Source: Patescibacteria group bacterium
GTDB lineage: Bacteria; Patescibacteriota; Microgenomatia; 0-14-0-10-38-17
Direction of reading: 5' to 3'
DNA: 64,000 nucleotides
Assembly (NCBI GenBank): GCA_050947035.1
Contig: JBMNVW010000002.1
Location: 4,820-68,819, forward strand
Both the position numbers and the translations under genes were made by a program. The first letter of the stretch is position 1. Each line of letters starts with the position of its first letter. Positions 44,850-62,675 of the stretch are shown here, piece after piece. The notes under the pieces were generated by a model. It was not told the origin of the DNA. It ran no database searches and worked only from the letters and a program-made list of their open reading frames with translations.

Positions 44850-44887
44850 GGAATTCGGGCACTCACATGGGAGTGCCCCTACTTTCG
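44850..44887. repeat. Family-C hairpin overlapping the stop of the PfkB kinase gene.
   Basis: The sequence ggaattcgggcactcacatgggagtgcccctactttcg has a 9-bp perfect stem, ggggcactc / gagtgcccc. Confidence 0.6.
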
Positions 44888-45832
44888 ACTTTTACTTTGA
44901 GCCCCGCCAAATTTCTTTAACCTTTCCTCCAGCTCTTTTTTGCTTAATAATCCCGCCTTAGGCCCAATCTGACCAATAACTGACAGTGACTCAATCATGC
45001 CAATCTTGACGGCTTCCGGCAAGGATTTTCCCCATATTAAACCGGCGACCAATCCCGTTGAAAAAGCATCTCCGGCTCCCGTGGCATCAATCACTTTCCC
45101 CTCTAGGGCTGGTTCTTTTGATATTTTGCCAGACTGATAAAAATAGGCCCCCTGCTTACCACAAGTAACAATAACAATTTCTGGACCAGCGTCTTTTATT
45201 TTCTCAAGATAATCTTTCCCCCAAAAACTCTTTGCCTCCTCTTCATTAAGAATTAAAACTTTTACTTTAGGAAAAATTTTAGCCAATTCCTCCTGATGAA
45301 CTAACTCTAAATTACCCGGATTTAAAACTGTTGATATTTTATAAATTTTAGCCTTATCAACCACCTCTTCTAATAAAGCAACATTGCCCTCAAGAGAAGC
45401 CAAGTATAGCCATCGCGTCTGTGACAAGGCCTTAAAGGGAAAAATGTCTTTGTCAACTCTAGTTTGACCTCTGAAAGTAAGGATAATTCTTTCTCCTGTG
45501 GACGACAACAAAATGGTCGAAAAGTCGGTTTCTTCACCATTAATCTGCCTTAAATAGGCCTTGTCAAACTCTTCTTCGGCCAAGCCTTCTTTCAGCCAGT
45601 TTCCTGCCCAATCATTACCAAAGCGAGCTACACAAGCGCAGTTTAGGCCTAAACGGGAAAAACCAGCCGCCGTGTTGGTCCCACCGCCCCCCACGGCCAT
45701 AACCCTTTTGGCTACCTCAACTTTACCTCCTGATAAGACCAAAGACTCCCGACCCCGATCGTCAATAACAAAATCATCAGACTGTAAAAAAACATCAACG
45801 GTGGCTGAGCCAACAGTAATAATATCGTACAT
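44879..45832 (-). CDS. PfkB-family carbohydrate kinase (ribokinase-like).
   Basis: DATGAGDAF motif and a GG-containing N-terminal sugar-binding region. Confidence 0.8.
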   Translation of the reverse strand: MYDIITVGSATVDVFLQSDDFVIDDRGRESLVLSGGKVEVAKRVMAVGGGGTNTAAGFSRLGLNCACVARFGNDWAGNWLKEGLAEEEFDKAYLRQINGEETDFSTILLSSTGERIILTFRGQTRVDKDIFPFKALSQTRWLYLASLEGNVALLEEVVDKAKIYKISTVLNPGNLELVHQEELAKIFPKVKVLILNEEEAKSFWGKDYLEKIKDAGPEIVIVTCGKQGAYFYQSGKISKEPALEGKVIDATGAGDAFSTGLVAGLIWGKSLPEAVKIGMIESLSVIGQIGPKAGLLSKKELEERLKKFGGAQSKSRK

Positions 45833-45858: not shown

Positions 45859-46617
45859 TTAAAAGTTAAAAACAATTTCATTTAATTTCTTGGCGACTTC
45901 TAGCGGATCATCGGCCTGCCAAACATTACGACCGACAATTAGTCCGTCAGCACCAGCGGTCATTATTTCCTCAGCTAAACCAAAAAAATCTTTCTTATCG
46001 GTCTTAGGCCCCCCCTGAACGGTCACCTTAAGTCGACCAGCGGCTTTGATTACCCAAGAAAAACTATTTGGATCACCGGTATAGGGTAATTTAGCTACCT
46101 CGGCTCCCATTTCTAGAGCTAATCTAGCCGCATAAGACAAAATTTCCCGACTGTATTCTTTGCCCTTAACCGCTTTTCCTCGAGGATACATCCAGCCAAT
46201 TAAGGGAATGCCAGCCTGATCAGCCTCTCGGCCAATTTTGGCAAATTGACTCATCATCTTTTTCTCGTGCTTGCTACCAACATAAACGGTATAACCAACT
46301 GCTTTTGCCCCCAAGGAAATAGCCTCATCTACCTGACATAATTGAGGTGAATAGGGCTCCTCGTCTAAAAGATTAGTTTTTCCGTTGAGCTTAATAATCA
46401 GGGGAGCTTTATTTTTTCCTGGTTGATAATATCGCTCGGCTACTCCTTTTTGCAAGGCAATACCAGTAAAATAACCACTATCCGCCAAAGATAAAACCTT
46501 CTCCGGATTAATATTTTCCTGATTAAAATCGGCGGTGCCATGTTCCATACCATGGTCATAAGCCAAAATTAAAAATCGACCTTTTTTGCTAATTGACTTT
46601 AAATTATTCCTTTCCAT
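45859..46617 (-). CDS. Class I fructose-bisphosphate aldolase of the archaeal/DhnA type.
   Basis: The sequence LILAYDHGMEHG..., a conserved Schiff-base lysine context (IIKLNGKT), and a (beta/alpha)8 barrel length of 252 aa. Confidence 0.7.
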   Translation of the reverse strand: MERNNLKSISKKGRFLILAYDHGMEHGTADFNQENINPEKVLSLADSGYFTGIALQKGVAERYYQPGKNKAPLIIKLNGKTNLLDEEPYSPQLCQVDEAISLGAKAVGYTVYVGSKHEKKMMSQFAKIGREADQAGIPLIGWMYPRGKAVKGKEYSREILSYAARLALEMGAEVAKLPYTGDPNSFSWVIKAAGRLKVTVQGGPKTDKKDFFGLAEEIMTAGADGLIVGRNVWQADDPLEVAKKLNEIVFNF

Positions 46618-46627
46618 CGATTTATTG

Positions 46628-47548
46628 TTATCCTAAAAATTTTAGTACTTCTTTTTTAATAGCGTTTTTAGTTAAACCATATTTTTTATAGAGGTCTTCT
46701 GGTTTTCTGGCTGACTGGCCAAAGCAATCAGGGATACCAATTCTCTTAACTGGAACCGGGCAATTGGCGGCTAAAATCTCACTAACCGCTGACCCTAATC
46801 CGCCAATAATAGAGTGCTCCTCAACCGTTATCACTCGACCAGTTTTTTTAGCCGAATTAATAAGAGTTTTTTCATCCATTGGTTTTATAGTGGCGCAATT
46901 AATTAATTCAATGTCAAAATCATTCGTCCAATCTAAAAGACGAGAAATAATCGGACCAGTAGCAATAAGAGTGGCTTTTTTACCAGAATTTAATATCCTG
47001 GCTTTACCAATAACAAAATTCTCTTTTTGATCAACAGAGGCGGTTTTATCACGACTAATTCTAATATAAACTGGCCCTTGATATTTGGCGGCAGCAAAAA
47101 CTGCCGATCGAACTTGATTAGCATCAGCCGGAGACAAAATAACCATTTCCGGCAAAACCCTCATTAGGGCTAAGTCCTCGATTGATTGAGCCGTCGCTCC
47201 ATCACCGGCATTAGAAAAGCCCAGGTGAGAACCAACCAGTTTTACATTAGCCCTATTTTGACAAATAGAAACTCTGATTTGATCAAAGGCCCGCCCCGGA
47301 ATAAAAACCGCAAAAGAAGATAAAAAAGGAATAAATCCTTCCATGGCCAGCCCGGCCGCCACCCCAACAGCATTTTGTTCAGCTACCCCCAAATTAAAAA
47401 ATCGATTCTCTTCTAGTTTTGTGGCTAGCTTTTCTATTCTGGTTGATGAGGCCAAATCTGGGCTTAGAGCCAAAATCCGCTCATCTTTTTTTGCCAACTC
47501 TAATAATGCTTCCCCATAGGCATCTCGTTGTGATTTTAGTTTGACCAT
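46628..47548 (-). CDS. Transketolase, C-terminal subunit (split transketolase).
   Basis: Pyrimidine-binding and C-terminal domains (GVAEQNAVGVAAGLA, GPVYIR). Confidence 0.85.
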   Translation of the reverse strand: MVKLKSQRDAYGEALLELAKKDERILALSPDLASSTRIEKLATKLEENRFFNLGVAEQNAVGVAAGLAMEGFIPFLSSFAVFIPGRAFDQIRVSICQNRANVKLVGSHLGFSNAGDGATAQSIEDLALMRVLPEMVILSPADANQVRSAVFAAAKYQGPVYIRISRDKTASVDQKENFVIGKARILNSGKKATLIATGPIISRLLDWTNDFDIELINCATIKPMDEKTLINSAKKTGRVITVEEHSIIGGLGSAVSEILAANCPVPVKRIGIPDCFGQSARKPEDLYKKYGLTKNAIKKEVLKFLG

Positions 47549-47640: not shown

Positions 47641-48468
47641 TCAACTGCCTCCTAGCTCCTTCATGGCTTGCCGATATTCCTCTTCGGACAAGACACCAGA
47701 ATGAAACCGTTTCTTATTTTCCATAAAAGAAACGCCTCGCCCTAAAATGGTCTGAGCAATAATAACGCTAGGGGTTCGATGAGAATCTTTGGCTTGACAA
47801 AGAGCGTGAAGCAATTCGTCATAATGGTGGCCGCTAATAATAAAGACTTCCCAACCAAAGGCTTTATATTTCTCTGCTAAAGACTCTAAAGCCAATAATG
47901 ATTCTGTTTCGCCACCAATTTGCATTCCGTTGCGATCGATAATGTTAACTAAATTACCTAGCTCTTGATGGCTAGCCGTCAAAATCGCTTCCCAAGTTGA
48001 CCCTTCGTTATGCTCTCCATCTGAAGTCAAGCAATAAACATTGTGATGCTCCCCTTTAATTTTTGCCGACAGGGCTCGGCCAACTGCTACTGATAAACCC
48101 TGACCTAAAGACCCACTAGACGAGTCGAGTAAGGGCAAAAAAATCTTACTTGGATGACCTTGAAGAGGAGAACCCAAATCTCTTAAAGAACCAAGCTTAT
48201 CTTTATCAATAAGACCGCATTCGGCTAAGACAGCATAATAGGCCGGACAAACATGACCATTAGATAAAATAAACCGATCCCGACGAGGATCTTGATGATC
48301 TTGGCAGTTATAACGAATAACTCCCCCAAAAAAAAGAGCCACCAAAATGTCCATTGAAGAAAAAGATCCGCCTAAATGACCAGAACCAGACTGGTGAATC
48401 ATTTTAAGAACCTGTCGACGGAGTTTTGTCGCTTTTTCTTCTAGTTTAGGAACGGGAAGATTCGACAT
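47641..48468 (-). CDS. Transketolase, N-terminal (TPP-binding) subunit.
   Basis: SGHLGGSFS and GSLGQGL TPP-binding motifs. Confidence 0.85.
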   Translation of the reverse strand: MSNLPVPKLEEKATKLRRQVLKMIHQSGSGHLGGSFSSMDILVALFFGGVIRYNCQDHQDPRRDRFILSNGHVCPAYYAVLAECGLIDKDKLGSLRDLGSPLQGHPSKIFLPLLDSSSGSLGQGLSVAVGRALSAKIKGEHHNVYCLTSDGEHNEGSTWEAILTASHQELGNLVNIIDRNGMQIGGETESLLALESLAEKYKAFGWEVFIISGHHYDELLHALCQAKDSHRTPSVIIAQTILGRGVSFMENKKRFHSGVLSEEEYRQAMKELGGS

Positions 48469-48533: not shown

Positions 48534-49148
48534 ATGGTTGCCAAAGAAGTTATTTTTGATTTAGAAACAAAAAAACTTTTCGATGATATTCCGGGACGAA
48601 ACCCAATTAATTTAGGAGTCTCAATTGTTTCTCTTTATCAAAGAACTCTAAACCAAAATCTAGAGGAGGAAGATGGCCAAATAATTAGTTTCTGGGAGAA
48701 AGATTTAGACCGACTTTGGCCAATTTTTTCTTGGGCTGATCGAGTCATTGGCTTTAACTCGGTTAAATTTGATGTTCCCGCTCTTCAAGCCTATGCTAAC
48801 AAGCCCCTATCTTCTCTCCCCCACTTTGATATCTTAGAAAAAATAAAACTTGCTTTTGGTAAAAGAATTAGTCTAAACAACCTGGCCCAAGTCAATCTTG
48901 GCAAAAAGAAAGTTGATGTTGGCTTCAACGCTGTTAAATATTACTATCAAGGTGATCAAGAAAGCCTAAAAAAATTAAAAAAATACTGCGAGATGGACGT
49001 ATTAATAACTAAAGATCTTTATGACTTTGTTTTAAGAAAGAGGGGGTTAAAAATTCCTGACCGAAAAACAAAAACAGCTTCCTGGCTTGACTTAGATTTT
49101 TCTTATCCTAAGTCTTTTTTCACCATTAGCCAAGAAAAATTATTTTAA
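48534..49148 (+). CDS. RNase H-like / DnaQ-like 3'-5' exonuclease-fold protein.
   Basis: Exo I-like motif FDLETK, Exo III-like motif YCEMDV, and a length of 204 aa. Confidence 0.45.
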   Translation: MVAKEVIFDLETKKLFDDIPGRNPINLGVSIVSLYQRTLNQNLEEEDGQIISFWEKDLDRLWPIFSWADRVIGFNSVKFDVPALQAYANKPLSSLPHFDILEKIKLAFGKRISLNNLAQVNLGKKKVDVGFNAVKYYYQGDQESLKKLKKYCEMDVLITKDLYDFVLRKRGLKIPDRKTKTASWLDLDFSYPKSFFTISQEKLF

Positions 49149-49151
49149 TTC

Positions 49152-49688
49152 TTAAATCAGTTCTTTAACTGCTGAAAGAGCCTCTTTTGGGCTATTGACA
49201 ATTCGATAAACTTGTTTTTCTTTCTCTCTGATTAACATGTTTTTAGCCAAAGCCTCAATTACTTCGTGCCAAAAAGAACCATAAAAAACCATTGGCTTAT
49301 GATTACCAAAATAAAGCCTAGCCAAACCCCAAGTCATAGCAAACTCTGATAAGGTGCCCGTACCGCCATTAAAAATTACATAAACTTCTCCCAACTCGAT
49401 TAGCTTCATCGTTCGCTCGATATAGCCTTCTAGAACTAACAGCTCATCAACTTTATTTTTCGGATCTTGGCCTTCAAAAAAGGTCATTCCTTTAGGATCA
49501 AATGTTGCCCCAATTACCCTGCCGCCACCGGCATGAGCCCCCTCAGTTGAAGCCCTCATTACCCCTGGACCAGCTCCATTAACAATATCAAAACCGGCCT
49601 CGGCCAATAATTTACTGGTCTCAAAAGCCACCTGATAAAGCGAATCGCCCGGCTTGGCTTCTGAATAGCCAAAAATGGTTATCTTCAT
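49152..49688 (-). CDS. LOG-family protein (TIGR00730; cytokinin riboside 5'-monophosphate phosphoribohydrolase-like).
   Basis: The motifs GAGPGVMRA and GGTGTLSEF. Confidence 0.8.
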   Translation of the reverse strand: MKITIFGYSEAKPGDSLYQVAFETSKLLAEAGFDIVNGAGPGVMRASTEGAHAGGGRVIGATFDPKGMTFFEGQDPKNKVDELLVLEGYIERTMKLIELGEVYVIFNGGTGTLSEFAMTWGLARLYFGNHKPMVFYGSFWHEVIEALAKNMLIREKEKQVYRIVNSPKEALSAVKELI

Positions 49689-49760: not shown

Positions 49761-50420
49761 TTACTTGCTACTATTCACTATTTTCTCTAGCCTTCTTATC
49801 GCTCCAATCGGATCTTTGCTTTCCCAAAGCGCACTGCCAATATAGAATTCTTCTGCGCCCATTTTATGACAAAAGGCCAAGCTTGTCTTGTCCACCCCAC
49901 CATCAACACCAATTTTAAAAAACCACCGCTCTTTCCCCCGCCAAACCACCATGTCTTTAATTTTAGGCAAAATTTGTGGGTCAATCTCTTGACCAGAAAA
50001 ACCCGCCTCTACTCCTAAGAGCAAAACCTGATCAACCATGTCTAGAGTCTGTTTATCTAATTTAGATATTTTTGTTTTTAAATCAAGAGCCAAGCCCGCC
50101 AAAAAACCTTTTTCTTTAGCCTGACGAATAAATTCAATTTGAGAAGGCATTGCCTCGATTTGAGCAGTAACTAAATTTGTTTCTCCCGGCCAATTTTGCT
50201 TATCTAGATAAGCAGCTGGATCTTCAACCATAAGATGAAAATCAAGTAAAAAATTGTTTTTTTTTGCTAATCCCAATAGATCGCTGGGGGTAATAGTTTT
50301 ATTTGAGGCAAACTTACCATCAACAACATCAATTTGAACCCGATCAACTTGGCCTTTTAAAAAAGAAAGTTTTTTTTCAACCTGATCAATATCGGCCGTT
50401 AAAATCGTGGGAATAATCAT
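49761..50420 (-). CDS. rpe: Ribulose-phosphate 3-epimerase-like protein.
   Basis: The motifs IIPTILTAD, DVVDGKF, DFHLMV, GVDGGV and GSAL align with the Rpe barrel. Confidence 0.65.
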   Translation of the reverse strand: MIIPTILTADIDQVEKKLSFLKGQVDRVQIDVVDGKFASNKTITPSDLLGLAKKNNFLLDFHLMVEDPAAYLDKQNWPGETNLVTAQIEAMPSQIEFIRQAKEKGFLAGLALDLKTKISKLDKQTLDMVDQVLLLGVEAGFSGQEIDPQILPKIKDMVVWRGKERWFFKIGVDGGVDKTSLAFCHKMGAEEFYIGSALWESKDPIGAIRRLEKIVNSSK

Positions 50421-50432
50421 AAAAAAATAAAA

Positions 50433-51464
50433 TCAGCGGCCAATTTTAATCGCCAACTCGACTAAACGGCAGGAGTAAGCCCATTCGTTATCATACCAGG
50501 CCGAAAGGTAAAGTAAATCATCACTAACCACCTTTGTCGAAGCGGCGTCAATAACCGCCGAAGATGGCCGACCAATAATATCAGAAGAAACCAAAGGATC
50601 GTAAGAAACGGTTAAAATCCCCATCAACTCTTTAGCGGCTTTCTTTTCCAACATTTGATTAACTTCATCAACAGAAACAAAGCGCTTAGTCTTAAAAATA
50701 AAGGTTGAGTAAGAACCACAGACAATCGGCGCCCGAATTGCGGTGGCGGCAAATCGACCAGCAACAGCCGGATACACTGCTTCCACTGATTTGGCCGCTC
50801 CTGTTCCAGTCGGCACCAAATTTATTGCCGCTGCTCGAGCCCGTCTTAAATCCTTACCGGAACCGTCAACCACTTGTTGGCTAGCAGTATAAGCGTGAAT
50901 CGTGGTCATTAAAGCCTCCTGAAAACCAATTTCTTGATCAATAATCTTGACAATGGGAGCCACACAATTAGTCGTGCAGGAAGCGTTAGAAATTAATTTT
51001 TGCTTATCATATTGATCGTCATTAACTCCTAAAACAAAAGTGGGGATAGTTTTATCTTTTGGCGGCGCCGAAAGAATTACTTTTTTAGCTTTGCCTAAAA
51101 AATGGCTTTCTGCCTTTCTATTTAAAAAAGCTCCCGTGCATTCTAAAACCGTGTCAACTTTATAATCCTTCCAGGAAATTTTAGCCGGATCTCTCTGGGC
51201 CAAAACTGGATACTCATCTTTACCAATCTTAATTCGACCAATTTCTGCTGATTCCTTAGGCGGCAGAGCCACCACCTCTTCCGGCCAAGTGCCATAAACG
51301 CTATCGTGTTTAAAAAGATGGGCCCAACCAGCCGTATCCATAGACCCTGAGGTGTTAATCGCTGTTACCTTAACTTTTTTGCGATAATTTTTTCTTATCG
51401 TTCTTAAAGTAACTCGACCAATTCGGCCAAAACCGGTAATTGCAAGATTTAGCATAACTTTCAA
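50433..51464 (-). CDS. gap: Glyceraldehyde-3-phosphate dehydrogenase.
   Basis: ITGFGRIGR NAD-binding motif and the ASCTTNC catalytic-cysteine motif. Confidence 0.9.
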   Translation of the reverse strand: MKVMLNLAITGFGRIGRVTLRTIRKNYRKKVKVTAINTSGSMDTAGWAHLFKHDSVYGTWPEEVVALPPKESAEIGRIKIGKDEYPVLAQRDPAKISWKDYKVDTVLECTGAFLNRKAESHFLGKAKKVILSAPPKDKTIPTFVLGVNDDQYDKQKLISNASCTTNCVAPIVKIIDQEIGFQEALMTTIHAYTASQQVVDGSGKDLRRARAAAINLVPTGTGAAKSVEAVYPAVAGRFAATAIRAPIVCGSYSTFIFKTKRFVSVDEVNQMLEKKAAKELMGILTVSYDPLVSSDIIGRPSSAVIDAASTKVVSDDLLYLSAWYDNEWAYSCRLVELAIKIGR

Positions 51465-51591
51465 AAATTTCTAATTTCTAATTTCTAATGTTTCAATGAC
51501 TAAAGCTTTGGGATTTATAATCTGAAATTTAGAATTTATTTGGTTATTGGAATTTGAGATTTGTTTGGAAATTGGGTTAATTGGAAATTGG

Positions 51592-52662
51592 TTATTTTGC
51601 CAGGGCTTCTATCCCTGGCAAAGTTCCCTTGGCCAAAAAGTCTAACATCGCCCCACCACCGGAAGCAATATAATTTATACTATCAATAAGCTCTAACCTC
51701 GTCAATGCTGCTTGGGTATCGCCTCCACCGGCCACCACAAATCCCCCTGAGGCAATAGCGGCCTCAAATAAAGCCCTAGTCCCCCGATAATGGCCTTGGT
51801 CGGTGTTTCCTACCGGACCGGCCAAAACTACTGTCTTGGCCTGAATAATTTTTTTTCTAAAATTAGCAATTGTTTGCTTATCTAAATCCTGCTTATCCTT
51901 GGTAAGGCGGCCAGGAAAAACTTTTTTACTTTCTAAAAGTTTAGTAAAACCGGAAATTTTTTCTGGTAATAAGCCTCCTAATAAAATTTGATCAGCCCAA
52001 TCAAGCATTTGGCTGGTAAATTCTAATTTATCTTCTTTTACTCCACCAATTACCAAAATAAGGGGGCGAGCCGGATTATTTAACAAAGAGGTTAGGCTAT
52101 TAATTTCTTTTTCTAAGGTCAGTCCGGAGGCTGAAGGTAAAAGTTTAGGTAACCCCACTACTGAAGCGTGCTTCCGATGAGAAACAGAAAAAGCATCGTT
52201 AATATAAAAATTGCCTAACTTAGCTAATCTTTTAGCAAAAACCGGGTCGTTATCTTCTTCGCCAGAATAAAAACGTAAATTTTCTAACAATAATATTTGT
52301 CCTTTTTCTAATTTTTTTGTCCAGCTTTGGGTTAAATTGCCAATTGTTTTTGGAGAGAAAAGAATCTTTTTCTTATAACCAATCAAGCCAAAGGCAAGCT
52401 CATTTAATTTTTGGGCCACCGGAGCAAGAGAAAATTGAGAATCAGATTCTTTTTGGGGCCGACCAAGGTGAGAAAGTAGAATCACCCTAGCCCCAGCCTC
52501 AATCAAAAATCTTAAAGTTGGCAAGGATAATCTAATCCGCTCATCATCAACAACCGCCAACTCTCCCTTATCGTTTTCTTTTAAAGAAACATTATAATCT
52601 ACCCGTACCAAAACTCGTAAACCATCAAAAACTGAAGGAGAAAAAGAACTTAAAGCTTTCAT
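51592..52662 (-). CDS. pgk: Phosphoglycerate kinase.
   Basis: The motif VRVDYNV and the C-terminal GGGA...G motifs. Confidence 0.9.
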   Translation of the reverse strand: MKALSSFSPSVFDGLRVLVRVDYNVSLKENDKGELAVVDDERIRLSLPTLRFLIEAGARVILLSHLGRPQKESDSQFSLAPVAQKLNELAFGLIGYKKKILFSPKTIGNLTQSWTKKLEKGQILLLENLRFYSGEEDNDPVFAKRLAKLGNFYINDAFSVSHRKHASVVGLPKLLPSASGLTLEKEINSLTSLLNNPARPLILVIGGVKEDKLEFTSQMLDWADQILLGGLLPEKISGFTKLLESKKVFPGRLTKDKQDLDKQTIANFRKKIIQAKTVVLAGPVGNTDQGHYRGTRALFEAAIASGGFVVAGGGDTQAALTRLELIDSINYIASGGGAMLDFLAKGTLPGIEALAK

Positions 52663-52685: not shown

Positions 52686-53132
52686 TTAATTAGAAATTTT
52701 TTCTATTTTTTCTAATCGTCGTTTATGTCTTTCTTGACCAGAAAATTGGGTTTCTAAAAAAACCTTAACCAATTTTTTGGCTTGATTAAAATTAACAAAA
52801 TCAGCCGGTAAAGCTAAGCAATTAATATCATCAAGGGCCCGGCCATGATAGACTTGTTTTTTATCAAAACCAAGCCCGCAACGGACCCTGTCAAAACGAT
52901 TAACAACAATATCAACTCCAATGCCAGAACCACAAAGAACAAGTCCTCGACTTTGAGGGTTATCACTTAAAGACTTGGCTAACTTTTTGGCAAAATCAGG
53001 ATAATCATCATCGGCATCAAAAACTAAATTGCCAAAATCCTTAACCTGATATCCTCGTTTTTCTAACCACGCTTTTAGCTTTTGTTTCAAGGCAAATCCG
53101 CGATGGTCAGTAGCAAGATAAACTAACACCAT
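52686..53132 (-). CDS. rpiB: Ribose-5-phosphate isomerase B.
   Basis: The sequence LATDHRGFALKQKLKAWLEKRGYQVKDFG and a length of 148 aa. Confidence 0.85.
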   Translation of the reverse strand: MVLVYLATDHRGFALKQKLKAWLEKRGYQVKDFGNLVFDADDDYPDFAKKLAKSLSDNPQSRGLVLCGSGIGVDIVVNRFDRVRCGLGFDKKQVYHGRALDDINCLALPADFVNFNQAKKLVKVFLETQFSGQERHKRRLEKIEKISN

Positions 53133-53206: not shown

Positions 53207-53869
53207 CTAAATACCAGATGCTAACTCTCTTAACTTCTCTTCCGGATTATCAGCCAAAACCACTGCCGATGAAATCAATACTCCTCTAGCGCCCATTTTT
53301 TTAGCTAGTAAAACATCTTCCCGACTATTAATTCCGGCCCCCACAACAAGGGGAACGTTTTTTTCTTTGGCTATAATAATTGCTTTACGAACCGACCCGG
53401 GAGATGCTTTAGTAATAGAATCTGGACCACCAATCAGCTCCTTTATTTCATAAGCCAAATAGTCTGGTTTAGCAAAAACAAGTTTCTTTAATTGGCCCAA
53501 GGTTTCTCCACAAACCATCGCTCCAAAATCATTATTAACATCTTTGGCTCTTCTGATAATTTGTTTTATTGTCCCCGGAGGAAGACGATGCTCTGAATGG
53601 TTAAGCAGGGTTCCTGTTGCCCCAGAAGCCATAAGCGCCTCTAAATTAATCCAACCCGTGGCCTGGCCCGGTTTTTGCCAATCGGCATGCTGAGCCCAGA
53701 CTGGCCCTTCAATCGCCTGACTAATCCGAAGCAAGTCTACTGTCTGGACAAGAGGAATAATTTCTACCTTTTTATTTTGAGCAACCCGATGGCAAATTTT
53801 GGCCAAACGCAAAGCCTTCTCTCCCGTCGCTTCGGGATAAGTTTTAAAGTTGATAAATATTTTAAACAC
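53207..53869 (-). CDS. tpiA: Triosephosphate isomerase, short archaeal type.
   Basis: The sequences INFKTYPEATG and GAGIN, at a length of 220 aa, are typical of archaeal-type TIM. Confidence 0.7.
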   Translation of the reverse strand: MFKIFINFKTYPEATGEKALRLAKICHRVAQNKKVEIIPLVQTVDLLRISQAIEGPVWAQHADWQKPGQATGWINLEALMASGATGTLLNHSEHRLPPGTIKQIIRRAKDVNNDFGAMVCGETLGQLKKLVFAKPDYLAYEIKELIGGPDSITKASPGSVRKAIIIAKEKNVPLVVGAGINSREDVLLAKKMGARGVLISSAVVLADNPEEKLRELASGI

Positions 53870-54008: not shown

Positions 54009-54299
54009 TCATATTCCTAGCTTTTTTCTCCCTTCTTCACTCATTCTCTCCGGACTCCAAGGCGGATCAAAAACTAACTTCACCTCAACCTCTTTAATTT
54101 CTTCTAGTTTACTAATTTTTTCTTTCACTTGATCGGTTAGCTTTAGCATAAACGGACAACCGGGAGTGGTTAGGGTCATTTTAATTACTGCCTTTCCCTT
54201 TTTAAAAGTAACCTCATAAATTAAACCTAAATCCCAAATGCTAATATCCATTTCTGGATCAGAGATTTCTTTTAGGGCGTTAATTATTTTTTCCTTCAT
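54009..54299 (-). CDS. DUF59 (MIP18/SufT-like) Fe-S cluster assembly-related protein.
   Basis: The sequence NALKEISDPEMDISIWDLGLIYEV and a length of 96 aa. Confidence 0.7.
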   Translation of the reverse strand: MKEKIINALKEISDPEMDISIWDLGLIYEVTFKKGKAVIKMTLTTPGCPFMLKLTDQVKEKISKLEEIKEVEVKLVFDPPWSPERMSEEGRKKLGI

Positions 54300-54317
54300 A
54301 ATTTTATTCTAACATCT

Positions 54318-55172
54318 TCACTCTTGATCAACCATTTCTTTGGCCTGAGAAATAATTTTTTTGCTTTTGTGGCCAATTAACTTTTGCCAAGCCAAATTAT
54401 TAACCAGATCCTGACAAAAAATTAATCCTTCCTTAAGTAAGATTCGTTTATCCTCAGGTGATAGGCTTGGCAAGCAGGTTAAAGGATGCTTGTTGCTCTT
54501 GTCAATCAAATCAGGCAAGGCTCTACCTTTAGGGTAATCCCAAGACAAAACCGCCAAACCGACACACTGGCAATATTTGAGCGCCTCTGAAGTTACTCGA
54601 GAATTAGTGGCTAATAATCCTTTAGTAAAGCGGTCCGGGGTACCAAAAACCGTCAATCTTGTTTCTTGCAAGTCATAAAATCGAGCCCAAATATAAAGGG
54701 CTGTTTTTAGAGCCACCTTAATACCGGCTCTACCATGAAACTTACACTCAATCAAATAACAGGCCGGTTCCTTCGATTGGGCCAAATAGTCTGAGAAGTT
54801 TGTTTTAGCAATAACATCTACCTCATGATCGACACATTTGCCAGACAAAACTTGAGAAACTTTAACTTGATAATCAAAAGACTCCAGCAGTTTAGCTAAA
54901 AAAGCCTCAAAAGGATAGCCAGTCGGACCCAAATCAATAATCGCCTGTTTAAGATTGTACTTGGAGGCCAAAAGAGACTTTTCTTGTTTTAACCAGGCAA
55001 AAACTAACCGATAAATTTCCTTCGTGGTTATTCCTGAATAAATTTTTTTATTTAACTTTCTAATAATTTTTTCTTCGGTCGCCTTTTTTGCTCCCGCCTT
55101 AGCCAAAGATCGCCTAACCTTACTTTCCGAAAAAGGCTCTCTTTCCCCGGATCGTTTAACAACCTCAATCAT
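54318..55172 (-). CDS. Fusion of an ATP-cone domain and a restriction-endonuclease-like (Mrr/PD-(D/E)xK) domain.
   Basis: N-terminal ATP-cone (MIEVVKRSGEREPFSESKVRRSLAKAG...TKEIYRLV) and a C-terminal nuclease core (DHEVDVIAKT...YLIECKFH). Confidence 0.65.
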   Translation of the reverse strand: MIEVVKRSGEREPFSESKVRRSLAKAGAKKATEEKIIRKLNKKIYSGITTKEIYRLVFAWLKQEKSLLASKYNLKQAIIDLGPTGYPFEAFLAKLLESFDYQVKVSQVLSGKCVDHEVDVIAKTNFSDYLAQSKEPACYLIECKFHGRAGIKVALKTALYIWARFYDLQETRLTVFGTPDRFTKGLLATNSRVTSEALKYCQCVGLAVLSWDYPKGRALPDLIDKSNKHPLTCLPSLSPEDKRILLKEGLIFCQDLVNNLAWQKLIGHKSKKIISQAKEMVDQE

Positions 55173-56248
55173 TTGCTTTTATTTTTAATAAACAAAACTG
55201 CTAAAAAGGTAGTAATCGGTACCGCCGCTACCAAGCCAATACTACCCACTAAAATTCTAACTACTTCTTCAGCGATAATTTCGTAATTAACTACCAACGA
55301 TAATCTTTGGTTACTATTAATAAATAACAACAATAATGGTAAAGAAGCGCCAGTATAAACCAGTACTAAAGTATTAACCATGGAGGCAATATGGTCTCGA
55401 CCAATAGACAAACTTTCTTGAAATAATTTTTTAGATTTAATTTTAGGATTAACCTTTTTTAATTTCTCTACGATCGCACTTTGAGAAATAGTTACATCAT
55501 CCAAAACACCTAAGGCACCAATAATAATTCCTGCTAGAACCAGTCCTTGCGGATTAATTAAACCCTGATGAGAAATCGACAAAAAACCAGCCTCCTCAGA
55601 AGATAAACCAGATATATTAGTCCCTTTAACAAAAATTTGCGCTAAAACCCCTGTTATAACCAAAGCAATTACTGTCGAAGCGGCGGCAATTGTTGTTTTT
55701 CGGCTAAAACCATGAGCTGAATAAAACAATAATGGCACCATCAGAACTGAAACCGCTATGCTGACTAAAACAGGATCTTTGCCTTGGTTAATTGGCGGCA
55801 AAATTAAAAAACCAACCACCAAAAATGATAACACCAAACCAATCAAAGAAGAAAACCCCTTAATTCCTCCCACCACTAAAACAAGCAAAACAAAAATTAT
55901 TGCCAACAAAATTAATTTAGGCCGACGGACATAATCGGCAATATAAAAAATGTTATTACCTTCCATGTCTGTTGACAAAGCCAGGACAATCTTGTCGCCT
56001 GTTTTAAATTTCTGGCTAGTTAAGGGATCATAAAACCCTGTTTCCACAGTCAATTTTTGCCCGGCAAAACGCCCATCCTTAACCAAAACTGAAACTTCTT
56101 GATAAAATTGACCAAGCTCTTGCTTCTGATCTAAAATCTCAACAATTTCCCCTTCCATTAATACTTCTTCTTGAGCCCAAACAGGAGACGGGCTTAAGAA
56201 GAAGCCTAAAAACAAAAATAAAACTACTAATTTTCTCATTGCTTTCAA
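55169..56248 (-). CDS. YibE/F-family membrane protein.
   Basis: Signal peptide, a periplasmic N-terminal domain, and six to seven transmembrane segments. It overlaps the downstream gene by 4 bp. Confidence 0.55.
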   Translation of the reverse strand: MKAMRKLVVLFLFLGFFLSPSPVWAQEEVLMEGEIVEILDQKQELGQFYQEVSVLVKDGRFAGQKLTVETGFYDPLTSQKFKTGDKIVLALSTDMEGNNIFYIADYVRRPKLILLAIIFVLLVLVVGGIKGFSSLIGLVLSFLVVGFLILPPINQGKDPVLVSIAVSVLMVPLLFYSAHGFSRKTTIAAASTVIALVITGVLAQIFVKGTNISGLSSEEAGFLSISHQGLINPQGLVLAGIIIGALGVLDDVTISQSAIVEKLKKVNPKIKSKKLFQESLSIGRDHIASMVNTLVLVYTGASLPLLLLFINSNQRLSLVVNYEIIAEEVVRILVGSIGLVAAVPITTFLAVLFIKNKSK

Positions 56249-56251
56249 TTT

Positions 56252-56569
56252 TTAAGAAGACAAAGTTTGGTTAATTTCCTCCTCTAAAACTTCAGCATTT
56301 TGCAACCCCAACCATTGTTTGACTACCTGGCCATCTTTAAATAAAAATAAGGCCGGAATACTCATTATGCTATATTGACTAGCCAAACCCTGATTATCAT
56401 CAATATTAACCTTGGCGATTTTGATTTTTCCACCTATTTCTTTGGCTAAATCATCTAAAACCGGCCCCATCATCTGACAAGGTCCACACCAAGGAGCCCA
56501 AAAATCAACCAAAACTGGTAAATCCGACTCTAGCACTTCACTTTTAAAAGATTGTTGGTCTACATCCAT
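56252..56569 (-). CDS. trxA: Thioredoxin.
   Basis: WAPWCGPCQ active site. The start is taken at the internal Met (MDVDQQ). Confidence 0.85.
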   Translation of the reverse strand: MDVDQQSFKSEVLESDLPVLVDFWAPWCGPCQMMGPVLDDLAKEIGGKIKIAKVNIDDNQGLASQYSIMSIPALFLFKDGQVVKQWLGLQNAEVLEEEINQTLSS

Positions 56570-56643
56570 ATTATTCACCCCCCACAAGAAACATTTTAAC
56601 ACTAAATTTGTCTTCCTTTAAGAACCATGTTAGGATAATTTTA

Positions 56644-57967: not shown

Positions 57968-58909
57968 TTAATTCTTAATCACAAACTCCACTTTTTTTCC
58001 TTTTGCTTTCGGCGCATATTCTTTTGTTAGTTTTTTAGCTTTTTCCACCACCTTATCACTAATTTCCCCCCTAACTAATGTGGTTGGGCCAGGAATATCT
58101 TTTAATTCAATCAGACAATCTCCTTTTTGGGTAGTTTTTTTAATTTCCTCATTTTCCTCGTGATTTCTGCCAATAACGATTAGAGTCTTATCAGACCAAA
58201 AATGACGACCAAGACTAGCCAGTCCCAAGCTATCAGACAAACTCTTAGGAAAAACGGCGATAATTTTAGACAGGCGCTTAGAAAAATTTTTATCGGTTAG
58301 CAAACAGCCCCCAGCTGGAGTAGTATAATTTTTTAACCCCCAATTTTGAACTAGTCTTAATTGTTCTTTTCGCGATCGGCCCTTAAGGCTAAATAATTTT
58401 CCCCTATCAAGCCAGCCTTTTTTTTCCGGTATCGTTGCTGGTAATAACTTTGCTGATAAAGGCCTAACCACCAAGCCCTCCAAGCCCGCTTCTTGGTCAA
58501 TTATTGTCAATGCTTGTTTATTTTGAGATAGGGGTCGTTGACCCAAAACATCACCGGTAACTAAAAATCTCGCTCTATTATTAGCCATTAAAGCGGCGGC
58601 TTTTTTTAACATTAATAAATGACAATCAAGACAAGGATTAAGACCAACCCCATAACCATGCTCCGGCGATAAAACTTTGTCTAATTGTTCTTGGCTAATA
58701 TCTAAAGTTCGCAAAGAAATATCCAACTCTCGAGCTTGTTTTTGGGCCGGCAAAGAAGTGTCAAAAAAATAACTTTTAAAAGTTACCCCGATTAAGTCTA
58801 TCCCCTGATCTTGAATAATTTTAGCTGCCAAAAGACTATCCAAACCTCCGGAAAGTAAAACTAAGGCAGTAATTTGCTTCTTTTCTTTGTTCATAATCGA
58901 TACCAACAA
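57968..58909 (-). CDS. PP-loop ATPase resembling MnmA-type tRNA 2-thiouridylase.
   Basis: The sequences ALVLLSGGLDSLLAAKIIQDQGIDLIGVTFKSY and CLDCH parallel the MnmA PP-loop and catalytic-cysteine regions. Confidence 0.5.
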   Translation of the reverse strand: MLVSIMNKEKKQITALVLLSGGLDSLLAAKIIQDQGIDLIGVTFKSYFFDTSLPAQKQARELDISLRTLDISQEQLDKVLSPEHGYGVGLNPCLDCHLLMLKKAAALMANNRARFLVTGDVLGQRPLSQNKQALTIIDQEAGLEGLVVRPLSAKLLPATIPEKKGWLDRGKLFSLKGRSRKEQLRLVQNWGLKNYTTPAGGCLLTDKNFSKRLSKIIAVFPKSLSDSLGLASLGRHFWSDKTLIVIGRNHEENEEIKKTTQKGDCLIELKDIPGPTTLVRGEISDKVVEKAKKLTKEYAPKAKGKKVEFVIKN

Positions 58910-60627
58910 TTATTAATTTTATCAATTAAGCTCTCCGCTTTAAAATGAAGGGCCGGATTGTTAGTTTGAAAATAAATTTGAGCTAAACCTGAATTAGCAG
59001 AATAAGAATGAGGGTTTATTTTTAAAGATCTTTCTAAGCTTTGTCTATACAAGTCCTCTTTTCCTAACAAACGAAAAAATCGACCTAATTTAATCAAACC
59101 CAAAGCTTGACTTTGGAAATCATCAACCAAATTTTTATTAATAACTAATTCCTCTGGCCCATTATCTAAATTAGTAAAAATAACCACATTTTCGTCAAGA
59201 TAAACCAAGCGCCATTCCTCATCTTGATAAAGATTAGTTAAAAATACTTTAGCCCAGGGGGTTTGATCAGTGTGAGAGATAAAAACTACCTCAATATTGT
59301 ACTCTTCTTTTGCTTTTTGCCAACTGTCCTTGTCTAACTGGATATTCTTATATTCTTGCCAAAAGCCAACCGGATAAGCCTCGGGTCGAGAATCAACAAA
59401 AACTCTAACATCAGGATAAAAATAGTCTAAGTAACTACCAATATCAAAATTGTTAAAAATATTCTTTTGAGGAAAATTTTTAATTAAAAAAAGAGCCGCT
59501 TCTTTGGCTGGCTGATCACCACCAAAACCAAAGTTTCGATCAGAATCCGACCAGCGATAAACTAAATTAGTAGAATAAATAAAAATTAATAAAAGGGCGG
59601 CTGATAAGCCGACTATTCTTATCCCCCAATCAAAATACTGTTTTATTTCTTGGGGAAGCTTTTTTAAAAAAAACCAAAAACTGCCTCCCCAAAGCCAAAA
59701 AGAATAAAGGGCAAAAAAAGGAAAATGACGAATTTGCTTGGCTGAAACAATTGATAAAACTAACCAGCCTGAAAAATCAAGCCATCTTTTTCTATTAAGA
59801 ATAAACAATAAGCCAAAAATAAAGCTTATTTTAAAAAAAGTAATACTGGCCCGATAACCAAAATCAGCCAAAAAGAAAATTGATTGGTTCTCGACAATTT
59901 GATAACCATAATTTTGCCAAATCAAGAACGGCGCCAGAGCTCCTTTAATAAAATTAGGATTTATTAGATTAGCCAATATGGCCAGCAATAAAGGAAGAAA
60001 AACCTTTTTTATTCCCTCTTTTGATTTAAAAATTTTATTTCGGAAAAACCAAATAAAATTTATTCCGATCAAAAAAAGACCAAAAATAAAAGAAATATGT
60101 AAATTAACCCAAAAAAGCTGCAACAACGGTAACCACCACAATAGCTTTTTCTCTCCTGACCTGGCCTTAGTAAAAATTATTAAAAAGAGAGTAAACAGTA
60201 AAAATCCAAAAATCTCCGGTCGAATATAGATCCGTTCCCGAAAAACCAACATTGGCAAGATTGACAAAAAAGCCGCCCAAGACGGCGGGGTTTTTTGAGA
60301 GACCAACCAGAAAAGACCCCCCCAGACTAAAACAAAAATAGCTGTCTTAAATAAAATTAAACCGTTATTGCCAAAATTATTATAAATTAAGGCAAAAACA
60401 ACTTCTGACAACCAATGATGATTTTGGAAAGAAAAATCTGTTTCTAGATAAGAAAAAAGATTGGTCCTGGGAATTGATTTTTCTTTTAAAATAATTTCTC
60501 CTAGTCTGATATGGCGACCCAGATCTTGATTCCACTCTACTCCTGAAGTGTGAAAAGAAAAACAAAAAACTACTAATAAAATAATTCCTAACCAAAACCA
60601 AAAAGAATAATCTTTTTTTCTTAGCAC
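58891..60627 (-). CDS. Large polytopic membrane protein with C-terminal TPR-like repeats (putative glycosyl- or polymer-transferase).
   Basis: More than 10 transmembrane segments and a C-terminal YRQSLERSLKINPHSYSANSGLAQIYF repeat region. Confidence 0.45.
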   Translation of the reverse strand: MLRKKDYSFWFWLGIILLVVFCFSFHTSGVEWNQDLGRHIRLGEIILKEKSIPRTNLFSYLETDFSFQNHHWLSEVVFALIYNNFGNNGLILFKTAIFVLVWGGLFWLVSQKTPPSWAAFLSILPMLVFRERIYIRPEIFGFLLFTLFLIIFTKARSGEKKLLWWLPLLQLFWVNLHISFIFGLFLIGINFIWFFRNKIFKSKEGIKKVFLPLLLAILANLINPNFIKGALAPFLIWQNYGYQIVENQSIFFLADFGYRASITFFKISFIFGLLFILNRKRWLDFSGWLVLSIVSAKQIRHFPFFALYSFWLWGGSFWFFLKKLPQEIKQYFDWGIRIVGLSAALLLIFIYSTNLVYRWSDSDRNFGFGGDQPAKEAALFLIKNFPQKNIFNNFDIGSYLDYFYPDVRVFVDSRPEAYPVGFWQEYKNIQLDKDSWQKAKEEYNIEVVFISHTDQTPWAKVFLTNLYQDEEWRLVYLDENVVIFTNLDNGPEELVINKNLVDDFQSQALGLIKLGRFFRLLGKEDLYRQSLERSLKINPHSYSANSGLAQIYFQTNNPALHFKAESLIDKINNCWYRL

Positions 60628-61562: not shown

Positions 61563-62675
61563 TTACTCTTCTTCTTGTATTTTTACCGGCATAATAATAT
61601 GTAAAAAATCTTTACTTTTGGGATTTTTAAAAATCACTGGTTTTTCTGACTCTTGCAACTCAATCACCACTTGATCGCTATCTAAATTAGTTAATAGATC
61701 AACCAAAAAGCGAAAATTAAAAGCCACTTTTTGATCTTTACCTTTAATTTGAGCCTCAACCTGACTAATGTTTTCTCCTAAAGAAGGAGCATTGGCAAAA
61801 ATCTCAATCTTGTGATCGGCAATAATTAATTTTATAGTGTTAGCTGATTCCCGAGCAAAAATAGAAGCTGTTCTTATTGCTCCCAAAAACTCTTCCCTGT
61901 CAACAGTAACCGTAGTTTCCTTATCCTGAGGAATAACTTTATCGATATTGGGATATTCCCCTTCTAATAAGCGAGAAGAAAATTCTAAGTTGGGTAAAAA
62001 GAAAACGGCTTGTTTTTCTTCACTGGCCAAGCCCAACTCCAATTCCGATAAATCATCCTCCGGCTTGTTTCTTACTAGTTCTGTTAATATTGTTGCTGGA
62101 ATAACAAAGTTAAGGTCAGAATATTTTTTCTCTAATTTAATTTTCTTAAAAGATAATCGATATCCATCGGTGGCTGATAATAAACAAATATCGTTATTAA
62201 ATTTAAAATTAACTCCCGATAAAACCGGTCGAGTATTATCGCTGGAGGCTGCAAAAACTACCTTTTCTAGGGCTTTAATAAACTTCTCATAAGGAAAAGA
62301 AACTTTTTTATTTGTTTTGGTGGGGATTTTGGGGAAATCATTAATTGAATTAGTTGGCAAATTAGCCGTAAAATTACCGCAAACAATTTTTAAATTTTCC
62401 TTTTTTTCTGTTAAAGTCACTTTCTCTGCTGGCAAAGAAGAAACAAAATCAGAGAAAGTTTTTGACAAAACAGCTACTCCTCCCTCAGAATCAATTTTGG
62501 CTCCACAATAATAATTAACTCCAGTCTCCAAATTAGTAGCGGAAATTTTAAGACGATTTTTTTCTGTTTTTAAAGCAATATTGGTAAGGATTGGCAGCTG
62601 AGGGTGAGAAGAAACAAAATGAGTAGCTACTGATAGGCCTTTATTTAAATTTTCTTGCAAAAGAGTAACTTTCAT
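61563..62675 (-). CDS. dnaN: DNA polymerase III beta subunit (sliding clamp).
   Basis: The sequence MKVTLLQENLNKGLSVATHFVS, a three-domain length of 370 aa, and a position next to dnaA. Confidence 0.9.
   Translation of the reverse strand: MKVTLLQENLNKGLSVATHFVSSHPQLPILTNIALKTEKNRLKISATNLETGVNYYCGAKIDSEGGVAVLSKTFSDFVSSLPAEKVTLTEKKENLKIVCGNFTANLPTNSINDFPKIPTKTNKKVSFPYEKFIKALEKVVFAASSDNTRPVLSGVNFKFNNDICLLSATDGYRLSFKKIKLEKKYSDLNFVIPATILTELVRNKPEDDLSELELGLASEEKQAVFFLPNLEFSSRLLEGEYPNIDKVIPQDKETTVTVDREEFLGAIRTASIFARESANTIKLIIADHKIEIFANAPSLGENISQVEAQIKGKDQKVAFNFRFLVDLLTNLDSDQVVIELQESEKPVIFKNPKSKDFLHIIMPVKIQEEE

Follow-up and report, generated by a model that had tools for sequence, protein, structure and literature searches.

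An ATP-cone joined to a PD-(D/E)xK nuclease core in a Patescibacteria bacterium and its relatives: a candidate adenine-nucleotide-gated nuclease

ATP-cones are the allosteric switch of deoxyribonucleoside triphosphate (dNTP) synthesis. To our knowledge, the biology of these domains beyond ribonucleotide reductases (RNR) and NrdR is essentially unexplored. Outside its ATP-cone, the protein treated here has its closest described relative in AF1548 of Archaeoglobus fulgidus (PDB 1Y88), which has only been predicted to be a restriction endonuclease (PMC1821046). The gene in question lies at 54318-55172 on the minus strand of a 64,000-nucleotide stretch of contig JBMNVW010000002.1 from a Patescibacteria group bacterium; this whole stretch is called the window below. 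Its product of 284 amino acids, the cone nuclease, carries an ATP-cone in front of a PD-(D/E)xK core, and sequence, structural model and analogy with known proteins together make it reasonably probable that it acts as an adenine-nucleotide-gated nuclease. There is nothing unusual about the window gene within its family, which is uncharacterised and already listed in the databases under the automatically assigned names 'ATP cone domain-containing protein', 'restriction endonuclease' and 'ATPase'.

Domain architecture and conserved residues

The 284-amino-acid protein consists of three domains, which are listed here together with the predicted catalytic motif:

54318-55172, minus strand: 284-amino-acid ATP-cone / PD-(D/E)xK nuclease / AF1548-like_C protein (open reading frame and Pfam)
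54933-55172, minus strand: ATP-cone domain, residues 1-80, β-hairpin and helices (Pfam PF03477, Foldseek)
54528-54920, minus strand: PD-(D/E)xK core (Mrr_cat / AF1548-type), residues 85-215 (Foldseek, Mrr_cat of homologues)
54330-54518, minus strand: AF1548-like C-terminal helical domain, residues 219-281 (1Y88 alignment, AlphaFold2 model)
54741-54818, minus strand: catalytic motif stretch, with D119 at 54816-54818, E142 at 54747-54749 and K144 at 54741-54743 (codons checked by translation)

While the fusion of an ATP-cone with an Mrr-like nuclease had been recognised in the initial annotation, made by a model from the letters and open reading frames of the window, the third domain at about residues 219-281 had been missed. 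The ATP-cone passes its Pfam model (PF03477) with 40.8 bits against a threshold of 25.8 (residues 3-62). The score for Mrr_cat (PF04471) is marginally under threshold in the window protein (19.7 against 21 bits), while five homologues with 42-46% identity exceed it (26.9-41.9 bits) and carry PF22357 (AF1548-like_C), for which the window protein itself has no match at E<=0.1. The Mrr_cat shortfall coincides with an insertion of 10 amino acids, NFSDYLAQSK (residues 124-133), which separates the strand of D119 from that of ExK and is found only in the clade of the window.

Residues 91-281 match AF1548 in phmmer with E=8e-24 and 30% identity. The AlphaFold2 model is confident throughout (predicted local distance difference test, pLDDT, 94.4; predicted template modelling score, pTM, 0.88), and shows helices at 219-226, 239-247, 253-258 and 260-281 in the C-terminal domain. 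In Foldseek, the C-terminal two thirds retrieved 1Y88 (E=7.7e-16, TM(target) 0.80), followed by the catalytic domains of MspJI, AspBHI and Can2/Cdn1, and the N-terminus retrieved NrdR cones (E. coli NrdR 9fxk_F, root-mean-square deviation 1.7 Å over 81 columns) and the ATP-cones of RNR. Because of the 1Y88 match, the homologues above the Mrr_cat threshold, the confident model and the Foldseek matches, we regard the predicted assignment as a nuclease as secure despite the sub-threshold score. Neither a Zn-ribbon nor a modified-DNA reader domain is present in the 284-amino-acid protein, whose sole domains besides the nuclease are the ATP-cone and AF1548_C.

The fusion of ATP-cone and nuclease was found in more than 3,000 database proteins and in at least 594 GTDB species genomes, forming 808 clusters at 50% identity, and occurs in Bacteroidota, Patescibacteria, Chlamydiota and other groups. 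The window protein itself is 100% identical to a database entry named 'ATP cone domain-containing protein [Patescibacteria group bacterium]' (P0001). Nearly all of the top 150 representatives have 263-305 amino acids, and their nuclease module begins at residue 80-94, behind an N-terminus of about 80 residues; the minority is made up of AF1548-like proteins standing alone and of truncated gene calls. A search with residues 81-284 revealed no other sensor domain on the nuclease module among these 150. A frameshift artefact joining two genes, which had been considered a risk for the initial annotation, is excluded by an architecture common to more than 3,000 proteins and by a single chain with one confident fold.

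Conservation was calculated from 247 full-length homologues. The residues E89, E117, D119, E142 and K144 are 100% conserved, and D119/E142/K144 align with D38/E51/K53 of AF1548, which were predicted to be catalytic (PMC1821046). The D ... (D/E)xK motif on the core β-strands and the glutamate of helix α1 (E89) are all in place, so that the earlier concern about missing catalytic residues no longer holds. Several cysteine and histidine residues around the catalytic motif are also nearly invariant, namely C113 (99.6%), H116 (97%), C143 (80%), H146 (94%), C203 (99.6%) and C253 (81%), and may bind a metal, for structure or regulation, or act as a redox-sensitive switch.

In the cone, V4, K6, R7, E12, F14 and K18 of the window protein correspond in the alignment to V48, K50, R51, E56, F58 and K62 of S. 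coelicolor NrdR, which are nucleotide-contacting residues; mutation of K50 and K62 impairs nucleotide binding by NrdR (PMC9110341). K6 is conserved to 98%, K18 to 99%, F/Y14 to 100% and Y72 to 98%. Judging from the model, the sequence LASKY (68-72; consensus LASRY) would be the counterpart of the FASVY helix of NrdR, which bears the ATP/dATP-discriminating Y128. Since the catalytic residues are invariant and the nucleotide-binding lysines nearly so, the family offers a clean and testable case of a metabolite-gated nuclease outside CRISPR/CBASS signalling.

The same residues bear on a role as NrdR-like transcription factor, in which the nuclease fold and the C-terminal domain would only bind DNA and the loading of the cone with ATP or dATP would control operator binding, e.g. 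in autoregulation of a downstream operon for a β-CASP hydrolase, a phosphorylase and a phosphoribosyl pyrophosphate (PRPP) synthetase that is described below. The cone is most similar to that of NrdR, its gene comes first in this cassette in Bacteroidota and Chlamydiota, and NrdR itself is the precedent for a cone and a DNA-binding domain acting as a nucleotide-sensing repressor. However, the complete conservation of the five acidic and lysine residues of the active site argues for retained catalysis, a Zn-ribbon is missing, and there were no RNR genes in the neighbourhoods inspected, and we give such a regulator very little credence. The large open reading frames flanking the cone nuclease in Patescibacteria loci, which were considered with regard to RNR linkage, encode a histidine kinase, a P-type ATPase, DUF2079, GyrA, DnaG, MnmA and TsaD, and none of them is an RNR.

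Gene neighbourhoods

Neighbours were counted within 6 kb of the cone nuclease in 80 species-level loci, and 16 further loci were also inspected. The most frequent partner is a β-CASP/RMMBL metallo-hydrolase (37/80), which in Bacteroidota-type loci is encoded 3' of the cone nuclease on the same strand. Its spacing of -17 to +33 bp in 26 loci marks it as a true operon partner there. Usp proteins follow with 28 loci, P-type ATPases with 21, Hsp20 with 10, a phosphorylase of the TP family with nine and PRPP synthetase with eight; the P-type ATPases recur across phyla and have no obvious mechanistic link. Bacteroidota-type loci have multiple Usp paralogues upstream, and Hsp20, a receiver-cNMP-Crp regulator, a D-2-hydroxyacid dehydrogenase and P-type ATPases nearby. 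In ten loci from Flavobacteriia (L023, L024, L040, L041, L045, L050, L052, L057, L066, L067) 4-6 Usp paralogues stand in tandem upstream of the cone nuclease. With their Usp, Hsp20 and Crp-type genes, these Flavobacteriia loci look like an island for dormancy or hypoxia, similar to the mycobacterial DosR regulon.

A cassette with the order cone nuclease, β-CASP/MBL hydrolase, 'thymidine phosphorylase family' protein and ribose-phosphate pyrophosphokinase is found across phyla, at the following loci:

L006, L015, L027, L033, L049, L056, L072: cassette
L090, 6001-10608: cassette
L091, 1972-6597: cassette

On a plasmid of Criblamydia (Chlamydiota) the genes of the cassette overlap and are flanked by phosphoketolase, glycogen phosphorylase and acetate kinase; the cassette is also present on a Pontibacter megaplasmid and on at least seven Bacteroidota chromosomes. 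With 601 bits the phosphorylase is above the cutoff of TIGR02645, a model of archaeal type, and with 506 against 535 bits it falls just short of the AMP-phosphorylase equivalog AMP_phos; the PRPP synthetase belongs to the PRK07199 subfamily. In Bradyrhizobium diazoefficiens a trio of consecutive genes with the same annotated names, bll3115-3117, responds to microoxia with induction of both protein and transcript, alongside Usp proteins, the Cu-ATPase FixI and CRP/FNR regulators (PMC6515984).

Relatives with 49-52% identity (L093 4104-6590, L094 2221-7996, L095 2034-9038) are located in copper and redox clusters. All three have DUF5676 and an HMA P-type ATPase; L094 also contains a CsoR-like repressor and a YHS protein, and L095 a hemerythrin, a thioredoxin and a thioredoxin-reductase-like protein. 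Taken together, the contexts point, if loosely, to stress and energy limitation. Of the initial proposal of a stress- or defence-linked effector, the link to stress thus gains indirect support, which comes from other lineages (Usp, Hsp20, Crp-type regulator, Cu-ATPase, hemerythrin and thioredoxin nearby); homologues of β-CASP hydrolase, Usp, Hsp20, P-type ATPase and TP-family protein were sought in the window and none was found.

These neighbourhoods also bear on a structure-specific nuclease of DNA repair or recombination, Holliday-junction-resolvase-like or flap-type, which would be tuned to the dNTP pool through the cone and match DNA processing to the capacity for replication and repair. 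The PD-(D/E)xK core and the C-terminal helical domain are common with AF1548, some homologues are named 'Holliday junction resolvase-like predicted endonuclease', and sensing of ATP and dATP is the known role of the cone in dNTP homeostasis (PMC9110341). Moreover, the gene is chromosomal and apparently vertically inherited, has GyrA and DnaG as neighbours in some Patescibacteria, and is found in the window, amid genes of core metabolism, about 7-9 kb from dnaN/dnaA. On the other hand, the resolvase names are automatic annotations, no repair or recombination gene is recurrently linked in the 80 loci, and the strongest partner is the β-CASP/RMMBL hydrolase with its 'RNA specificity' domain, next to stress proteins. 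We consider a repair nuclease unlikely.

The surroundings of the cone nuclease in the window are as follows; Pfam annotations from TIM to PfkB were transferred from L089, a Pfam-annotated contig that is 99.3% identical to the window:

56252-56602, minus strand: thioredoxin (Pfam 105.9 bits; NCBIfam TIGR01068 126.3 bits against a cutoff of 96.8)
55169-56248, minus strand: YibE/F-family membrane protein (Pfam YibE_F, 243.8 bits)
54009-54299, minus strand: DUF59 / FeS_assembly_P (SufT-like) small protein (Pfam PF01883, 72.3 bits)
53207-53869, minus strand: TIM (open reading frame, L089)
52686-53132, minus strand: RpiB (open reading frame, L089)
51592-52662, minus strand: PGK (open reading frame, L089)
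50433-51464, minus strand: GAPDH (open reading frame, L089)
49761-50420, minus strand: RPE (open reading frame, L089)
49152-49688, minus strand: LOG-family (PF03641) protein (open reading frame, L089)
48534-49148, plus strand: one gene interrupting the minus-strand block (open reading frame)
47641-48468 and 46628-47548, minus strand: split transketolase, two genes (open reading frames, L089)
45859-46617, minus strand: DeoC (open reading frame, L089)
44879-45832, minus strand: PfkB (open reading frame, L089)

The DUF59 protein resembles the SUF_assoc and SufT models and scores under their cutoffs. As initially annotated, the genes for thioredoxin, YibE/F, cone nuclease and DUF59 are tightly packed on the minus strand, with a 3-bp gap, a 4-bp overlap and an 18-bp gap between them; the ATGA shared by the stop of YibE/F and the start of the nuclease can be read directly in the sequence. 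The cluster does not, however, end at DUF59, since the co-directional run reaches on to about 44.9 kb, and the first two starts are probably over-extended. Translation of YibE/F probably begins at ATG 56239, matching a gene call of 356 amino acids in L089. Because of an upstream Shine-Dalgarno-like GGGGGTG and a 105-amino-acid gene call in L089, thioredoxin (105 amino acids) most probably starts at ATG 56569 and not at GTG 56602.

Relatives with 85%, 73% and 69% identity keep the order ThiI-like protein, NTP-transferase (opposite strand), thioredoxin, YibE/F, cone nuclease, DUF59, TIM, RpiB, PGK, GAPDH, RPE and LOG, with DUF59 missing from the 69% relative. At 45% identity the locus comprises YibE/F, cone nuclease, RpiB, TIM and PGK, with a 4-bp overlap of cone nuclease and RpiB, and neither thioredoxin nor DUF59; at 44% cone nuclease, DUF59, TIM, RpiB and the following genes remain, and YibE/F is gone. 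DUF59 drops out of the loci of P0008 and P0013, thioredoxin out of P0013 and YibE/F out of P0015. The neighbours that persist in the clade are the ribose-phosphate and triose genes (RpiB, TIM, PGK) and not the redox protein.

The initial annotation had suggested a nuclease co-transcribed with a redox protein and a membrane protein. In this scenario the four genes from thioredoxin to DUF59 would form one functional operon, whose redox and membrane proteins would control or localise the nucleotide-gated nuclease. The tight spacing without a terminator-like site on the minus strand, the adjacency of YibE/F down to 45% identity, the near-invariant cysteine and histidine residues flanking the active site, and a thioredoxin a few genes away in certain unrelated loci (L031, L047, L066, L095) are in line with such an operon. 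Nevertheless, at the family level it is largely refuted by the neighbourhood counts: YibE/F and DUF59 each occur near the cone nuclease in 1/80 loci (both in L001 from Shapirobacteria, with 68% identity), and thioredoxin in 4/80. The set of TIM, RpiB and PGK likewise occurs in L001 only (1/80). Within the clade any one of the partners can be lost, the distance between YibE/F and nuclease varies from -4 to +388 bp among close relatives (388 bp in L081), the conserved block extends far past the four genes, and a scan for operon promoters and terminators yielded nothing beyond shuffled sequence. A family-wide neighbourhood of thioredoxin, YibE/F and DUF59 was rejected on the 80 species loci and the 16 further loci. 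We hold a functional four-gene operon for improbable, and the arrangement is best described as the inherited gene order of one Microgenomates lineage rather than an obligatory module. The four genes of the window should not be annotated as a system.

Further observations concern the block itself and the right part of the window. Transketolase is encoded by two separate genes for the N-terminal and the pyrimidine-binding/C-terminal half, and LOG, split transketolase, DeoC and the PfkB-family kinase form, with RpiB and RPE, a compact block of pentose and nucleoside-sugar catabolism. Between PGK and GAPDH, L089 has an extra gene of 123 amino acids (13538-13970; Pfam 23S_rRNA_IVP) which is not present in the window (51464-51592), a strain-level insertion or deletion within the glycolytic block. 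A ThiI/NFACT-R_2-type PP-loop protein of 313 amino acids (57968-58909, minus strand) overlaps by 19 bp with the gene at 58891-60627 (minus strand) for a multi-pass membrane protein of 578 amino acids without Pfam hit, and this pair is also kept upstream in the close relatives L081 and L085. The replication-origin region lies at the right end of the window, with dnaN at about 61563-62675 and dnaA from about 63017 to past the window end, both on the minus strand (mapped from L089). The cumulative GC skew is lowest at about 60-62 kb and becomes positive over the last 2 kb of the window.

Defence and the proposed function

The initial annotation had held that the protein is not a classical restriction enzyme and that no methyltransferase partner is present in the window. 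The former is borne out, and the latter holds for the range covered by the Pfam annotation of L089, where no methyltransferase was found within +/-10 kb; among the recurrent neighbours in the 80 loci there is none either. By its sequence, with no modified-DNA reader domain, the cone nuclease is neither a classical restriction enzyme nor a member of the type IV restriction enzymes.

A link to defence, which had also been suggested, would imply a solitary (type IV-like) restriction enzyme or an abortive-infection effector, whose cone senses a disturbance of the nucleotide pool caused by phage and unleashes the nuclease. The Mrr_cat-type core does resemble the modification-dependent MspJI and AspBHI and the defence nucleases Can2/Cdn1 and ZorD, a sensor joined to a nuclease is typical of such effectors, and type IV enzymes require no methyltransferase. 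However, PADLOC-DB 2.0 (5,027 models) gave no full-length match for the 284-amino-acid protein; the partial matches cover only nuclease subdomains of CARF_PDDEXK, ZorD (Mrr-like) and PDC-S02, with at best 20 bits for the window protein (residues 72-123) and up to 36.6 bits in homologues. In tblastn searches no copy was found in 50,697 phage records and copies in 2 of 72,556 plasmids, and no contig of IMG/VR encodes a relative. A defence system was rejected on these subdomain matches and on the essentially empty searches of phages, viral contigs and plasmids. In addition, the gene resides in conserved syntenic blocks of housekeeping or stress genes and not in variable islands, and its very high residue conservation and uniform architecture are unlike those of fast-evolving defence genes. 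We judge a defence effector very improbable and do not retain the proposed link.

The adenine-nucleotide-gated nuclease remains our preferred reading. The analysis shows how the domains are arranged, how well the residues are conserved, how widely the family is spread and which genes surround it, whereas binding of nucleotides, cleavage of DNA or RNA, the sense of the regulation and the role in the cell are inferred. We propose a cytoplasmic, chromosomally inherited nuclease whose activity would be set by adenine nucleotides. ATP and/or dATP would be bound by the NrdR-type cone (residues 1-80), and binding would shift the oligomeric or conformational state by analogy with RNR and NrdR, switching cleavage on or off, much as CARF domains gate nucleases of the Can2 type. 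This change of state would govern the access of DNA or RNA to the intact PD-(D/E)xK site, while the C-terminal helical domain, probably nucleic-acid-binding, would help to hold the nucleic acid. The protein would be part of responses to energy limitation or stress, rather than of restriction or phage defence.

Since enzymes of ribose-phosphate and nucleotide metabolism appear in two independent settings, with RpiB and LOG in the clade of the window and with AMP-phosphorylase-like enzyme and PRPP synthetase in other lineages, we tentatively suggest as one possibility a regulated nucleic-acid turnover that feeds salvage or catabolism of nucleotides and ribose phosphates. If the links to β-CASP hydrolase, AMP-phosphorylase-like enzyme and PRPP synthetase and to Usp, Hsp20 and Crp-type proteins reflect function, they would point to a regulated turnover of the cell's own nucleic acids in hypoxia or energy limitation. 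A wider scheme, which we regard as speculative and rather doubtful, would place the family beside RNR and NrdR as a third functional class of ATP-cone proteins. An ATP/dATP-gated nuclease, β-CASP hydrolase, AMP-phosphorylase-like enzyme and PRPP synthetase would then form a route, induced by hypoxia or energy stress, from nucleic acids to ribose phosphates and bases, and in nucleotide-auxotrophic Patescibacteria the nuclease, next to RpiB, TIM, PGK and LOG, would be the entry point of a ribose-based energy metabolism.

Several points weigh against the gated nuclease and its proposed physiology. The phosphate contact R7 of NrdR is an arginine in only 11% of the 247 homologues (alanine in 56%, serine in 15%) and E12 is conserved to 70%, and because of this variation the nucleotide specificity may differ from that of NrdR. 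By sequence, only the first half of the cone aligns with NrdR (phmmer, residues 3-48), and the top phmmer matches of the cone are spurious designed repeat proteins. Ribose or nucleotide genes are nearby in 12/80 loci only, and many Patescibacteria loci have unrelated housekeeping neighbours (MnmA, TsaD, GyrA, DnaG, DUF2079). Since the neighbourhoods are this heterogeneous, the physiological role is weakly constrained and may differ between lineages, and the link to glycolysis and pentose genes in the clade of the window could be plain inherited gene order. The connection to bll3115-3117 is a lead by annotation name only, with no ATP-cone gene reported there. Finally, no functional or biochemical study of the fusion was found in the full-text literature, which did not cover most subscription journals.

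Comparison with known systems

AF1548 (PF04471 and PF22357) shares with the cone nuclease the region of residues 91-281, the catalytic D/E/K and the C-terminal helical domain. In contrast to the cone nuclease it is a stand-alone protein from structural genomics, with a structure since 2004, no ATP-cone and no assigned function. NrdR is the closest match of the N-terminal domain in both structure and sequence, and in both proteins a cone is fused to a nucleic-acid-directed module. However, the cone of NrdR is located C-terminal to a Zn-ribbon and no catalytic domain is present, whereas here the cone is N-terminal to a nuclease; on the window protein the NrdR model TIGR00244 scores 21.4 bits, in a match confined to the cone, where its cutoff is 124.65.

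The CARF-PD-(D/E)xK nucleases (Can1/Can2/Card1, Cdn1) have related cores (Foldseek 7bdv, 8bao, 9u49) and likewise combine a small-molecule sensor with a PD-(D/E)xK effector. Their sensor is a CARF domain instead of an ATP-cone, so that matches from PADLOC and Foldseek cover the nuclease part only, and their ligand is cyclic oligoadenylate, while that of the cone nuclease is presumably ATP or dATP; neither a CRISPR/CBASS context nor defence islands occur here. With the type IV enzymes Mrr, MspJI and AspBHI the cone nuclease shares the Mrr_cat-type catalytic domain. It differs from them in its conserved chromosomal synteny and as a protein of 284 amino acids without a modified-DNA reader (winged helix or SRA-like), the DNA-recognition domain being replaced by the ATP-cone. 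Because the defining domains are absent, the cone nuclease is not a member of the Can2, NrdR or type IV restriction families. Its family combines two known kinds, the allostery of ATP-cones and the ligand-gated PD-(D/E)xK nucleases.

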